Shown: in pieces, positions 13,583 through 62,703 of the stretch
Layout of the letters: each line of letters begins with the position of its first letter
Numbering within the stretch: position 1 is the first letter of the stretch
Origin: Mobula hypostoma
Lineage: Eukaryota
DNA length: 64,000 bases
Direction: 5' to 3'
NCBI RefSeq assembly: GCF_963921235.1
Contig: NC_086097.1
Coordinates: 8,680,001 to 8,744,000, forward strand
The notes under the pieces: generated by a model
Seen by the model: only the letters and a program-made list of their open reading frames with translations
Databases searched by the model: none
What the model was told of the DNA's origin: nothing
Position numbers and translations under genes: made by a program

Positions 13583-13815
13583 TACTTATTTAGAGATACA
13601 GCGAGGAATGGGCCTTTTCAGCCCTTTGAGCTGTGCCGTCAAGCTACCCACTGATTTAACCCTAACCTAATCGCAGCACAATAACCAATTAACCTATTAC
13701 TGGTACATCTTTGGACTGTGGAAGGAAACCCACGCACTCATGGGAAGGAATTACAAACTCCATTATCAATAGCGGCAGGAATTGAACTCTGAATTCTTAT
13801 GCTCAGAGCTGTGAC
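13583..13815 (-). mobile_element. V-SINE (internally deleted)
   Basis: ttatttagagatacagc tail and tctttggactgtgg V-domain in reverse. Confidence 0.75.
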
Positions 13816-28969: not shown

Positions 28970-29265
28970 TTTATTTATTTCTTTTTATTTTATTTAGAGA
29001 GAGCACAGAACAGGCCCTTTTTGCTCAATGAGCCACACTGCTCAGCAACTGACCTATTTAACTCTAGCCTAATCACAGGACAACTTACAATGGCCAATTA
29101 ACCCACTAACCGTAATATCCTTGAAGTGTGGGGGTAAACCAGAGCACCCAGTCATGAGCAGAACATACAAGCTCCTTACAGATGGCACCTGAATCGAACT
29201 CCAAATTCCAGAGTGCCTTGAGCTGTAATAGTGTCACGCTAACTTCTACGCTACCGTGATGCCCT
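28970..29265 (-). mobile_element. V-SINE
   Basis: Homologous to 23752-24048. Confidence 0.8.
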
Positions 29266-30258: not shown

Positions 30259-30522
30259 TTATTTATTTACTTATTTAGAGATACAGAGCTGAACAGGCCC
30301 TTCAGGCCCACCGAGTCACGCCTTCCAGCAAGTCACTGATTTAACCCTAACCTAATCATAGGTCCATTTATAATGACAAATACACCTACTTAACCTGTAT
30401 GTCTTTGGACTGTGAGAGGATACTGAAGTTTACAAGAAACAACTTACAAACTTACTCACAGAGGATGCTGGAATTGAACTCTGAACACCAAGCCCCGAGC
30501 TGAAATAGCGTCACTCTATACT
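30259..30522 (-). mobile_element. V-SINE
   Basis: Tail and V-domain in reverse. Confidence 0.75.
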
Positions 30523-32626: not shown

Positions 32627-32929
32627 AGGTGTCACGATAGTGTAGCGGCTCATGTGATGCTATTACAGTTCAGGGTATCAGAGTTCAGAGTTCAATTCTG
32701 TCATCATCTCTATGAAGTTTGTGTGTCCTTCTGATGAGTGGCTGAGTTTCCTCTGGGTGTTCCAGTTTCCTCCCACAGTCCAAAGACATACCGGTTATTG
32801 AGTTAAATTGTCTTTGTAATTTCTCTAGTTATTAGGCTAGGGTTAAGTAAGTGGGTTGCTAGGTGATGCAGCTCATTAGGCCAGAAGAGCCTGTTCCACA
32901 CTGTATCTCTAAATAAATAAATAAATAAT
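32627..32929 (+). mobile_element. V-SINE
   Basis: V-domain tttcctctgggtgttccagtttcctcccacagtccaaagacat; (TAAA)n tail. Confidence 0.85.
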
Positions 32930-45000: not shown

Positions 45001-45290
45001 TGGAGCACCACAGTAGTGGAGTGGTACGTGCGACGATATTATAGCTCAGGACATCGGAGTTTGGAGTTCAATTCCAGCATCCGCCGTAGGAATTCTTTAC
45101 GTTCTTCCCATGAGTGCGTAGGTTTCCTCCAAGTACTCCAGTTTGCTCCCACAGTCCAAAGACGTGCCAGTTAGTTGGTTAATTGGTCTTGTGATTAGGC
45201 TGGGGTTAAATCAGTGGGTTGCTGGACAGCACAGCTCAGTGGGCCAGAAGGGCCTGTTCCGTACTGGATAAAATAAAAATACATAAATAA
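45001..45290 (+). mobile_element. V-SINE
   Basis: tRNA head, cccacagtccaaagac V-domain and tail. Confidence 0.8.
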
Positions 45291-56420: not shown

Positions 56421-56699
56421 TAACCAAGCATGATAATCAGAAAATTTAATTTAAATTAATAATCTAGAATTTTTACAATTGTCTTAATAATAATATCTGA
56501 AAAATTCTGAGAGACACAAGAGATACCAGATATTAGAATCTGAATCAAAAACAAGCTTTTAGAGGAGGCAGCATCAGTGGTCAGAAATGGATGGGATTAT
56601 ATAGACTATCTTTATGCGCATGGAACTCTAATGTTAGTTACTCTTAAATGATTGATTTATTTATCTATTTAATTATTGATTGATTGATTTATGGATTTG

Positions 56700-56970
56700 T
56701 TTGTTTGTTTATTTTAGAGGTACCGTGCTGAATAGGCCCTTCCAGCTCACTGAGCAACCTACCATTTTAACCCTAGTCTCATCATGGATAATGTACAATG
56801 ACTCTTTAACCTACTTTGGAATGTGGGAGGAAACTGGAACGCCCTAAGGAAATCGAAACAGTCACGGGGAGAACATACAAAATCCTTACTGATGGTGCTG
56901 GAATTGAACTCTGAACTCCGAAGCCCCAATCTGCTATCATGTCACCCTAACTGCTACACGACTGTGGTGA
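56700..56970 (-). mobile_element. V-SINE
   Basis: Homology to other copies. Confidence 0.7.
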
Positions 56971-57008
56971 CCATTACAAGCAACTCAAGAGGCATCAGAA
57001 TTTGATTT

Positions 57009-60000
57009 GAAAATACACATGGACTAAGATGTTAACTGTCCTGTGCTATCACCAGTGGGATCATCAGTTGATCTGCCACCTGTCTTCAGGAGTTTCGGCC
57101 CGCTTATGATCAAGACTCCCTCGAGGTGGTGGGCCAGCAGTGCTAAAGCACCGCCTCCCACTGGTGAGCTTAAAAACTTAGCATCTGCCTCCATCAGAGT
57201 TGGTGGTTGCTTCCATCCAACAGATAGTCTACTCTTCAGGTGTCTATGCAACTACTGAAGGGTTTGCAAGATATGTATACACTGTCCGACTATCTGCCCC
57301 TCAGGACATACTTGGTCCACACTCATGCTGATCCTGTCTCTGCTGTCTCAGCTACAGCCCTGCTGGTTGACTTGATCTCTCTTCTAGTGAAGCCAAGGTC
57401 ATGCAGCCACTTCTGGAAAGTGAACGCAATAAAGCCACAGCAACCTACTTCTAATGGTAGCATGAGACCTTCCACCATCTGTCTCTGCACTCTGATCTTA
57501 AATCTGCATACTTGGTTGACCTGCGCTCGTGGGCTTCATCGATGTTGTCTTCCCAGGGGACTGTGAGTTCACCAATAACCACCTCTCTACTGCTGTCAGA
57601 CCATACGATTATATCTGGACGCAATGTGGAGAAAGCTATTTGCTCCGGGAAACTGCCTTTCCCATCCAGGTCGTCCTTGACACACCAATCATTGGCTGAA
57701 GGAAGTATGCTTGATCGTGAGCCTGTGCTGTACACCTTTGACTTGGAGCCTTCTTTCACAAATGATTTGCAATGTTCTGTGCAGCATGGGGCATGAGATA
57801 AGTTGTGCTGCAGTACTCTCTGCTCAACCGCTTCTGTTACAACTTTGAGAACATGGTTATGTCTCCAAGTGTACATGCCGCTGGAAAGATTGACTCTGCA
57901 TGCACTCAAGATATGTTGAAGTGTTCCCTTCTCGCCACAGGCAGCACACCTGTCTGTCTTATCTTCATACCAGGTGCTGAGGTTGGCAGGTGTTGGGAGC
58001 AGGTCATACGCTGCTCTGCATAGAAAAGAAATGCGGAGCGGTTCCATCTGCTACAGAACATTCCAAGATAGATGTCATTGTTCAACGCTTTCCCACCAGG
58101 TCCAAGCACCTTGTTTGGCCAGGCCAGCTGTTTTAGATAACCTCTTCTCCTCTTCTACCTCTCGTATTTCTTGTGTTACAAGCTCACGGCACTCCGTACC
58201 TGTAGAAGGTGACCACCACTTGTGGGTTGGACATCCAAGTACCTGGCAGCCTAGCTAGATAGCCCCAACCGTCTCCTTGTGCTTCAATCTAGACTGTGCC
58301 TCATCAACTGCTACACGGGCTGACCTCTTCCTGCCTGATCTCACATCCGGCTGGGTGTTCTTGATGACAGGGTCTTCTGAGTCTCAAAGCATCAAGAATG
58401 ATCTTACCTTGGCTACCTTGACCTCTTCAACAAGGGATTGCACTGGGATGGTAAACTTTGTCTGGCTACTGTGGATTGCAACATTGGTCAGGCTGCTTGG
58501 TATTGCAAGCCACTTCTTCACATACTTGTTGATCTTCGTTTCCATTGCCTCAACATGGGACATTGCCACTTTATAGACAGTTAGTGGCCACATTATCCAT
58601 GGCATCAGTCCGTACTGCAAGCACCACAACTTCAACTTGCCAGGCAGGCCACACTTGTCGACAGACATCAGACCTCTGCTGATCTGTTCTCCTGTCTCTT
58701 GAACCCTCTTGGTGTCTCTCAGACCTCTGTGTACCATTGCGTGAGGCTCTTAACTGGTTGGTCCTGAATGAATGGACTCTCCTTTCCACAAAGGGTGAAA
58801 TGAAAGTCAGCCAGCTTACCTCTCCTAAGAACAAGGCTCCTTGACTTCTTGGTCTTGAACTTAATTCTTCCCCAATCCATTAGCTCCTCAAGCTTAGATA
58901 GTACATTTTCCACTGCCTCCGTGCTGGGACCCAAAAGGGTGAGATCATCCATGAATGCTCGTATTGGTGGTAACTCCCCTCCGCCATCAAATGCGACACC
59001 TGGTCCCACTGATTCTACAGCCCTCACAATAACCTCCATGGCTAACACAAAAAGGATGGGTGAAATTGCACATCCCATTGGGATTCCAACATCCAAGCTC
59101 TGCCACCTAGTTGTAAACAGCTGAGTGCAAAACCTCATTCAGAAATCATTCTACTGCTGCATAATAAAGTTCCTCACCTTAGCAGGAATCCGTAGGAATT
59201 CCATTGCAAACTCAATCAGGACATGGGAAACAGAATCATATGCATTTGCAAGATCAAGCCAAACTACAGCCAGATTTCTTCTCAACATTTTCAACTCCTG
59301 GATGGTATGCCATATCATACTAGTATGTTCAAAGCATCCTGGGAAGCCTGGTATTCCTGCCTTCTGCACAGATGTATTTACCAACCCATTCTCTATCACA
59401 AATGAAGATATTCTTTCTGCTAGAATGTCAAACATAATCTTCCCCTCTACATTCAGGAGTGAAATTGGTCGGAACTGATTCAATGTAGAAGAATTCTCTT
59501 CCTTCGGGATGTATACTCCTTCAGCCTCACTCCATGACAAAAGAACAACACCTTGTCTCCACACCACCTTTAACAATCTCCACAAGTATTTCCTCAGCTC
59601 TTCACACTTCTTGAACACCTTATACGGCACTCCATTAGGTCCTGGCACTGAGCCTGACCTTGCCATTCTGATGAACCGATCGACTTCTGCCAGTTTGGGT
59701 TCTGACAGATCGAATTTCACTCCTGGTTTGGTAGGCTTCACAAGCCCTGAAATGACAAGCAAAGGAGCCTCCCGCTGTTCGTTAGAGTAAGTGCTTGCCA
59801 GGTGATCCTCAAGTTCTCGTTGAGAGATGTTAAGTTGCCCGCTCTTACTTTGTTCAAACAATTTCTCTGTGAACTCGTGAGGGTTCTGAAAGAACGACTT
59901 TCTTGCCTTCTCTCTCTTCTTTCTCTTTTTACATTGTGACTCTGCACGATGGAGTGACGCTAACTTTATTTGAAAATGCTCTCGGAGATCAGCAAGCCTT

Positions 60001-60901
60001 GGCTTGTCACCCTCACTTGCTACCTTCCACCTCTGTCTCAACGATCTAAGCTCTCTCCTCAATCTACTAATCTCCTCCTGGTACCTGCTTGGTTGCTGTG
60101 TTGGCTTTGCTTTCTTCAACTCAACCAAACCAAACCTGTACTTTCCAACATTGTAAATCATATCACCCATCACTTCCAACTTTCTCTTTGATGTTCCCCT
60201 GAGAGTGTTCTCCAACATCATACTGATATCCTCATCAAACACACGCCAAGCCTTCTCATTTTCCATTGCTGACCACTTGACCTTTCTCTTCTTCTCCACC
60301 TCCTCACCACTGCCATCATGCGAAGGATCTACCTGGGTACCGTGGTCTGAAACCTGACCTGGGTTATCTCTCGGCTGATTTGGAGTATGATGACTCTCTC
60401 CAGAGCGAATCGCTGTGGTTTGTGAATCAGTGTTTGAAAAGACCACATCATCTGTGCTTGGTGAAGTAATCTCATCTTCATCCACTGGGACGGAATAGCA
60501 CCTCAACTTTGCTTGGTGGAGTCGTAAACCTTTAACCCTCTCCCAGGCCAACACATTGGACACTCAGTGCCTCTTATCCTAGCTCTTGGCCGTAGTCGTT
60601 CCCCGTGATTAATTGTAACCGTCCGATTGGGTCCATCATTCTCCCTCTCTCTCGGAGGACCCCGAGGGTATGTTTCTCTGTGTAAACTAGAAGCTTCAAG
60701 AGGTGGGTGCTCTTCTGAGCTGGTGCCCGGACTGCCAATCCCGACAGCCCCGGTCCAGTCTTTCCTGGCTGCCCGCTGTCTCTCCACGCTGTCACCAGAC
60801 TATTCCCGGTTGCCAGCCAGACTATTTCTGGTAGTCACTGGTGTCCAGAACAAAAGAACTGAAGATACATGTGGACGGAGATGTTAACTGTCGTGTGCTA
60901 T
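57009..60901 (-). mobile_element. HERO-type (R2/NeSL group, REL endonuclease) non-LTR retrotransposon, near full length, frameshifted single ORF (about 60790 to 57290)
   Basis: GLRLHQAKLRC; FRPISLLNVEGKI, QKAGIPGFPGCFEH, WLDLANAY, GIPMGCAISPILF, AFMDD; YDLLPTPANL, CAACGEKGTLQHILSAC, WRHN, RPDIIVW, ELTVPWE. Confidence 0.92.
57054..57128 (-). ncRNA. Candidate rearranged (non-circularly permuted) hammerhead ribozyme in the HERO 3' UTR
   Basis: GGAGUC, UUGAUC ... GAAACUCC ... GAUCAA-CUGAUGA-UCCC; stems I and III pair perfectly in hammerhead register. Confidence 0.7.
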
Positions 60902-62410: not shown

Positions 62411-62703
62411 TTATTTTATTTATTTATTTACTTATTTATTTCGAGTTACATCACAGTTGGCACTTCTGGTCCAACGAGCCACACCTCACAGCAGGCCATT
62501 GATTTAACATTGGCCTAATTACAGAGCAATTTACGATGATGAATTAATCTACTTACCAGTACAGCTTTGAACTGTAGGAGGAATCCCACATGATCACAGG
62601 AAAAATGTACAAACTCCTGACAGATGGTCCTGGAATTGAACCCTGAACTCCAAAACAACCTTAGCTCTAATAGTATCACGCTAACTGCAACACTGCCGTG
62701 GCT
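62411..62703 (-). mobile_element. V-SINE, degenerate
   Basis: (TTTA)n tail and tRNA head in reverse. Confidence 0.7.

Follow-up and report, generated by a model that had tools for sequence, protein, structure and literature searches.

To our knowledge, hammerhead ribozymes with a non-circularly permuted order of strands have until now been recorded only in RNA and DNA from environmental samples, their hosts being unknown. In type SGC the strand with the cleavage site (block S) precedes the GAAA strand (block G) and the CUGANGA strand (block C); ribozymes of this type (the HRIMA-1 motif and variants) cleave in vitro and need all four stems, and mutation and rescue showed two ties between stems I and II to be required (Eckert, Friedrich, Weinberg and Weinberg 2023, PMC10085705). 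The 583 examples came from metatranscriptomes and metagenomes, with no link to a reverse transcriptase or retrotransposon shown in that paper, and the six-permutation scheme assumed that block C cannot be interrupted (PMC10085705). The DNA analysed here, hereafter called the window, is a stretch of 64,000 nucleotides (nt) from Mobula hypostoma (NCBI RefSeq assembly GCF_963921235.1, contig NC_086097.1, positions 8,680,001 to 8,744,000 of the forward strand; positions below are counted within this stretch). Its minus strand carries a degraded retrotransposon of the type without long terminal repeats (non-LTR), and the 3' untranslated region (UTR) of this element contains hammerhead core letters in the order S-G-C.

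The minus-strand segment 57167-57049 is one copy of a conserved RNA domain of about 120 nt in the retrotransposon 3' UTR. Comparison with relatives indicates that the domain holds a complete hammerhead catalytic core, the pattern of conservation being the catalytic one, and that its fold is the type-SGC form circularly permuted, opened between A9 and helix II in block C. The explanation proposed for the whole, a conserved S-G-C hammerhead domain which would cut its own RNA and act as a switch of the fate of that RNA, is held with moderate confidence. The strings reported in a preliminary description of the locus are all in place on the minus strand, namely GGAGUC (57119-57114), UUGAUC, GAAACUCC (57096-57089), GAUCAA and CUGAUGA, and the 12-base-pair (bp) inverted repeat reported with them is indeed perfect (Table 1). 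The accompanying hairpin is present and covaries in relatives, but it comprises 8 bp including G-U pairing and not, as first described, 7 bp (57137-57154). From 5' to 3' the domain consists of the outer-helix strand X, the hairpin Pa, strand Y, the 5' strands of helix IIIb and stem III, U16.1 with H17, the 5' strand of stem I and the linker L1, followed by the 11.x strand, GAAA, the 3' strands of stem III, helix IIIb and stem I, CUGANGA, the 3' strand of the outer helix and the tail. On folding, the 132-nt stretch was more stable than all of 200 shuffles (z -3.9).

The motif was searched for with a descriptor covering all six block orders on both strands. The descriptor set minimum lengths of 5 bp for stem I, 4 bp for stem III next to the A:U pair and, with slack, 3 bp for stem II. 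It gave a single match in the window, at the 57049-57167 site. When the window was shuffled 200 times with dinucleotide composition preserved, 25 matches arose in 23 of the shuffles, 2 of these matches being as good as the real one; the window match by itself is an event of about 1 in 100 per window, and the lone copy is not convincing. Since a single copy could arise by chance, the weight of the evidence rests on relatives of the element. These were 80 loci from metagenome contigs, found with an alignment of the C-terminal domain and having 30-52 % amino acid identity. In them the descriptor gave 15 matches, whereas 40 shuffled sets gave 0.425 on average and 3 at most, and 13 of the 15 had the order S-G-C on the sense strand after the stop codon of the open reading frame (ORF), at a distance of 100-250 nt and once of about 470 nt.

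The sequence CUGANGA was present in 33 of 58 downstream regions of the related loci. A covariance model built from five metagenome loci, with the window excluded, found 57049-57167 end to end with 58.7 bits (E 5e-13), and a second model, which scored the window at 92.9 bits, gave 31 matches, all on the sense strand. Together with four loci seen by the descriptor alone, the matches of the second model place the motif in 34 of the 80 loci. Of these loci, 27 belong to the 52 in which 250 nt or more follow the stop, and the other 7 have shorter downstream sequence. When the 52 are divided by their identity to the window protein, the motif is present in 24 of the 29 at 39 % or above and in 3 of the 23 less similar ones. 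Motif-bearing loci have it 37-428 nt after the ORF stop, and the distance from the motif to the end of the element varies among families from about 45 to at least 525 nt; the loci L015 and L039 are 76 % alike for at least 525 nt past the motif, which places the domain far from the 3' end there. Two further loci (L042:3285-3389 and L024:2583-2704) contain copies of the domain with altered letters in GAAA and CUGANGA, which are probably decayed. No relatives were found in a scan of viral contigs. Words resembling a tRNA T-arm (GGTTCRAATCC type) occur in the 3' UTR just before strand X in L015, L031, L039, L078 and L010; ARAGORN, run on 10 loci and on the window, called no tRNA.

Core letters were counted in 25 distinct sequences anchored on the motif. 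For inclusion a sequence had to form no fewer than 4 pairs in stem I and 3 in stem III, with G allowed at position 17; L010 was left out because it was dubious, and L019 because its sequence is the same as that of L018. As MAFFT alone had put the cleavage site wrongly in 9 of 22 rows, the counts were anchored and the alignments model-based. CUGANGA and GAAA were present in all 25 sequences, N7 being U in 12, C in 6, A in 5 and G in 2, and the letter before GAAA being C in 23. The U16.1:A15.1 pair was likewise found in 25 of 25. Position 17 was C in 12, A in 11 and U in 2 sequences, and G in none. Pairs 0-4 of stem I (2-5 pair types each), pairs 1-3 of stem III (several pair types) and pairs 0-3 of the helix between strands Y and 11.x (Y:11.x) were formed in every sequence, the opening pair of Y:11.x being G:C in 23; over the first nine pairs of the outer helix, 22-25 of the 25 sequences were paired, with 4-6 pair types for each pair.

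The predicted fold is real, inasmuch as relatives keep it with matching changes in its helices. On the alignment A6 the helices of the search model were 96.8 % paired, compared with 60.0 % in shuffles, and double changes were found at 31 of 31 pairs; both sides had changed at 12 of 12 pairs of the outer helix (helix 1), and double changes occurred at 8 of 8 pairs of Pa (helix 2) and 5 of 5 pairs of IIIb (helix 3). RNAalifold predicted the same nested helices. Stem I and Y:11.x, which lie outside the search model, were 87.3 % paired compared with 71.0 % in shuffles on A6, and 82.3 % compared with 60.8 % on the alignment A7; none of 500 shuffles matched the observed pairing percentage or covariation score, and slid controls were at 30-60 %. 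The preliminary description had claimed a hammerhead core with its strands in the non-circular order UH, GAAA, CUGANGA and had proposed that stems I-III should covary around invariant core letters. This order is conserved in the relatives, with compensatory changes in stem I, in stem III and in the CCACCU/AGGUGG helix (IIIb), and with CUGANGA, GAAA and the exclusion of G from position 17 all maintained, but the covariation does not extend to the stem II it had proposed. Its expectation that standard searches would miss the motif was borne out: Rfam gave no hammerhead match at E up to 10 in 56500-57700 and none at E up to 1 in 20 motif-bearing loci, as expected because the form is permuted and pseudoknotted.

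In place of canonical helix II the relatives have a different arrangement. The stem II described earlier (CCCACU/AGCGGG), in which the letters after A9 pair with those before G12, is at chance level, its positions being paired in only 8, 11, 16, 15, 20 and 6 of the 25 sequences, and two offset versions were also at the level of the slid controls. The helix adjoining G12 is Y:11.x, with Y upstream of the cleavage-site strand, and its opening G:C resembles the usual G10.1:C11.1 pair of hammerheads. A9 runs on into the outer helix; the 12-bp repeat, which had been taken for an on/off switch acting against stem II, is instead a conserved helix of the fold and directly adjoins A9. X, Pa and Y follow one another without spacers, and therefore four helices meet where helix II normally leaves the core: the outer helix, Pa, Y:11.x and the core arm form a four-way junction. 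In 17 of 25 sequences all letters of the junction were paired; among the other 8, some are misassignments by the script. Helix IIIb connects the strand that follows Y to the one that precedes stem I, and L1 connects stem I to 11.x.

The likeness to type SGC is close: the block order, the conservation of all core letters and the crossing of three helices are the same, the linker between stem I and 11.x is short in both (typically 3 nt there, 1-7 nt here), and a further stem, here IIIb, ties the other sides of stems I and II (PMC10085705). The difference is that CUGANGA directly precedes the helix II strand in type SGC, whereas here Y stands upstream of the S block and A9 enters the outer closing helix, which creates the four-way junction. 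No report was found, in a literature search outside the subscription journals, of a hammerhead in HERO or R2-group 3' UTRs, of a split block C or of a four-way junction at helix II. A split block C in the published S-G-C order, and a hammerhead in this group of retrotransposons, thus both appear to be new.

Table 1 Element and RNA domain in the window, with positions of features on the minus strand
Feature	Positions	Strand	Remarks
Degraded single-ORF non-LTR retrotransposon	57290-60859	-	Reverse transcriptase, CCHC finger, PD-(D/E)xK endonuclease
X, 5' strand of outer helix closing the domain	57156-57167	-	Pairs with 57049-57060; perfect 12 bp, covaries
Pa, 8-bp hairpin including G-U pairs, 4-nt loop	57136-57155	-	Between X and Y, no unpaired letter
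Y (GGCCC)	57131-57135	-	Pairs with 57097-57101 just 5' of GAAA; replaces 10.x strand of helix II
Helix IIIb, 5' strand (CCACCU)	57124-57129	-	Pairs with 57076-57081; ties far ends of stems I and II
Stem III 5' strand (57120-57116), U16.1 (57115), C17 (57114)	57114-57120	-	Predicted cleavage at the bond 57114/57113
Stem I, 5' strand (UUGAUC)	57108-57113	-	Anchored counts and covariation
Linker L1, stem I to 11.x strand	57102-57107	-	1-7 nt in relatives
11.x strand GGGCC (57101-57097) and GAAA (57096-57093)	57093-57101	-	GAAA invariant
Stem III 3' strand (57092-57088), 6-nt spacer, IIIb 3' strand (57081-57076)	57076-57092	-	Covariation
Stem I 3' strand GAUCAA (57073-57068) and CUGAUGA (57067-57061)	57061-57073	-	Core letters kept
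Outer helix, 3' strand	57049-57060	-	Follows A9 without spacer
Element 3' tail after domain	57008-57048	-	Family homology ends at about 57007-57010

The element spans about 60859 to about 57010 of the minus strand. Its ORF matched RVT_1 (E 5e-10) and zf-RVT (E 3e-4, below Pfam's cut-off), and in the C-terminal alignment of 25 sequences the C, C, H, C and PD...E columns were invariant. Comparison with relatives showed that the reading frame changes past an apparent stop at 57451 and that the true ORF stop is 57292-57290. Because the ORF continues in another frame, the 3' UTR begins at 57289 and not, as had been described, at 57450; it extends to about 57010. The window copy also has an in-frame stop at 57325-57323, which most other copies lack, and it is dead although its 3' domain is intact. 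Named relatives of the element protein come from Branchiostoma, Amphiura, sea slugs and a catfish, which is compatible with the HERO clade as listed in PMC7650587, where the reference elements include those of amphioxus and sea urchin. The carriers of the domain would be placed in an animal clade of non-LTR retrotransposons with a restriction-like endonuclease, of the R2 group and HERO-like.

No other copy of the element was seen in the 64-kb window, and Rfam gave no match to an RNA like that of hepatitis delta virus (HDV) at the 5' end of the element. Directly upstream of that 5' end lies a copy of the last 42 nt of the element, i.e. of the tail right after the domain (direct repeat 60860-60901 and 57008-57049, 86 % alike), which may have arisen by a template jump, or represent a tandem copy of part of the element or a genuine terminal repeat. 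Its interpretation as a target-site duplication, with the 3' end of the element at 57050, was rejected, as homology within the family extends to 57007-57010. Just downstream of the element, at 56814-56970, there is an unrelated short interspersed repeat (71-77 % alike), also found at 141-248, 13722-13796, 29149-29264, 30441-30518, 32678-32785, 45006-45161 and 62594-62701.

Copies in hosts were assessed from contigs of four sequencing runs, three of DNA (three organisms) and one guessed to be of RNA (X15), with 1901, 1312, 2714 and 75 contigs. The domain of the window copy has the reading of nearly all contigs, except at 57153, a private change in Pa which keeps the pair. In all four runs the family homology stops at about 57007-57010, where the depth falls from about 3e5 to about 10, with loose ends of unrelated letters at 57007 and 57010. 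Depth in the DNA runs rises 2-3 fold from 57092 to the end of the element, and contigs matching up to 57092 continue into a shared purine-rich sequence that differs from the window. There is hence a second repeat family, more abundant, which has in common with the element only its final approximately 83 nt, from the 3' strand of stem III onward, and lacks blocks S and G. The edge of this family at 57092, not the cut site, is what the raised depth at 57036-57092 follows. Contigs of X15, which is RNA only by guess, cross 57113/57114; contigs cannot show RNA ends and are neutral on cleavage.

A discontinuous hammerhead is present in the 3' UTRs of rodent Clec2 genes, where the cut removes the end of the message. 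It shares the 3' UTR location with the domain described here but is part of a host gene, and its topology is the classical one, with a long insertion, whereas the present domain is non-circularly permuted and belongs to a retroelement. HDV-like ribozymes occur at the 5' end of R2, a long interspersed nuclear element (LINE). Such LINE ribozymes, among them the twister variants at the 5' end of Perere-3 (PMC8501958), resemble the domain in being self-cleaving RNAs within a non-LTR retrotransposon transcript, cleavage being predicted in the present case, but they free the element from an upstream co-transcript, whereas the 3' UTR domain would sever the 3' part. The hammerheads of Penelope-like elements and retrozymes also occur in non-coding terminal regions of animal retroelements at high copy number (PMC4209133, PMC7229834). 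They are classical circular permutations lying in repeats at both ends, and their carriers have a GIY-YIG endonuclease or are non-autonomous, unlike the element here with its reverse transcriptase, CCHC finger and PD-(D/E)xK endonuclease.

Because the conservation pattern is the catalytic one, activity is judged likely, and it is predicted with fairly good confidence that the RNA of intact copies cleaves itself. The cut would fall between C57114 and U57113. In the window copy the two products would remain paired by about 29 bp (outer helix, Y:11.x, IIIb and III), so that the cut would amount to a nick which uncouples the coding part from a 3' part of approximately 104 nt containing the priming tail. 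Such a nick could act as a fate switch, in which intact RNA would serve as template, perhaps shielded by bound reverse transcriptase, and cut RNA would become message or a substrate for decay, limiting the use of RNAs not bound by their own protein. Of the roles considered, this fate switch is weakly favoured as the most likely.

Several results weigh against an active ribozyme with this role. The alignments A6 and A7 behind the covariation percentages were fitted to the model, and the 25-sequence set was pre-selected for pairing in stems I and III. Canonical helix II was 47.5 % paired compared with 47.8 % in shuffles, 399 of 500 shuffles being as high, and no tested precedent for a break of the backbone between A9 and helix II was found in the literature. 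Thousands of copies of the family extend approximately 104 nt past the predicted cut, to about 57007-57010, and among the contigs no insertion or deletion at 57113/57114 was listed at a share of at least 5 %. The templates which were copied must therefore have been intact or exactly re-joined, and cutting does not form the 3' end of the template; the proposal that ends of HERO RNA are generated by cleavage after 57114 is for this reason not supported. The range of distances between motif and element end also fits no simple role in end formation, and the second repeat family, lacking the S and G blocks, indicates that the last approximately 83 nt have a role without a ribozyme.

The most serious alternative is that the domain is a 3' UTR fold bound by the reverse transcriptase for target-primed reverse transcription, comparable with the pseudoknotted 3' UTR of R2. 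It would then be derived from a hammerhead or be hammerhead-like without cutting, the invariant letters being contacts with protein or tertiary contacts and cutting having been lost through the break between A9 and helix II. The long closing helix, the presence of the domain in the 3' UTR of every family, the inclusion of the whole domain in the copies and the absence of canonical helix II are all in keeping with this, as is the second repeat family, which keeps only the 3' part and still multiplies. Binding of this kind does not readily account for core positions which behave as in a ribozyme, N7 being free, position 17 never G, the A:U pair fixed and a G:C pair opening helix II, nor for helices which adjoin the core without spacers while all helix sequences change. 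Such a non-cutting fold is considered unlikely, though it has more in its favour than the other alternatives.

A further point on this question comes from a more distant sister group of these retrotransposons (L054, L056, L057 and L058), in which a different self-cleaving class may occupy the same slot. The Twister-P5 model gave sense-strand matches to L058:3532-3588 (28.3 bits) and L057:2772-2821 (20.5 bits), both below the cut-off of 37.6. Placed in the 3' UTR 200-230 nt past the ORF stop, the twister-like stretch is conserved in each of the four loci, and a closing helix flanks it; in the printed alignment of L058, two pairs of letters deviating from the Twister-P5 consensus remain complementary. 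This match lends weak support to a cleavage function. If it is real, two ribozyme classes would share the slot, which favours cutting as the selected function. A more far-reaching proposal is advanced only tentatively: that an active hammerhead, its interruption at A9/helix II bridged by a four-way junction and thus outside the six-permutation scheme, is kept in the 3' UTRs of a widespread clade of animal LINEs, that a twister takes the corresponding slot in the sister group, and that self-cleavage in the 3' UTR may be a required step of the life cycle.

It is improbable, though conceivable, that an active ribozyme serves instead to process the 5' end of whatever RNA lies downstream. Where copies stand in head-to-tail arrays or are read through, the released RNA would start at 57113 and run, with the tail as leader, into the next copy, in a manner similar to the HDV-like and twister-variant ribozymes at the 5' ends of other LINEs. 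In favour, the cleavage-site strand precedes the G and C blocks, as suits 5' processing, a copy of the 42-nt tail is found directly upstream of the element 5' end, and the published twister variants of Perere-3 lie at a 5' end (PMC8501958). Set against this, the 66 nt of the domain upstream of the cut would be lost, the upstream piece is 42 nt and not the expected 104 nt in the one copy examined, and the window has no second copy of the element. Finally, the idea that short words of a structured, GC-rich stretch came together by chance, for which the frequency of such single copies and the very many windows scanned might speak, is so improbable as to be regarded as refuted, given the excess of descriptor matches in relatives, the recovery of the window domain by a model built without it and the covariation even of helices left out of the model.

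If the S-G-C hammerhead reading is true, non-circularly permuted hammerheads would be placed in animal genomes, in thousands of copies and inside an autonomous retrotransposon. The hammerhead core would also tolerate a strand break at the junction of A9 and helix II; permuted ribozymes, and engineered ones, could then be searched for in a wider space. The known LINE ribozymes are at 5' ends; a conserved ribozyme in the 3' UTR, which would sever the priming part from the rest of the transcript, raises a new question about the handling of RNA by these elements.

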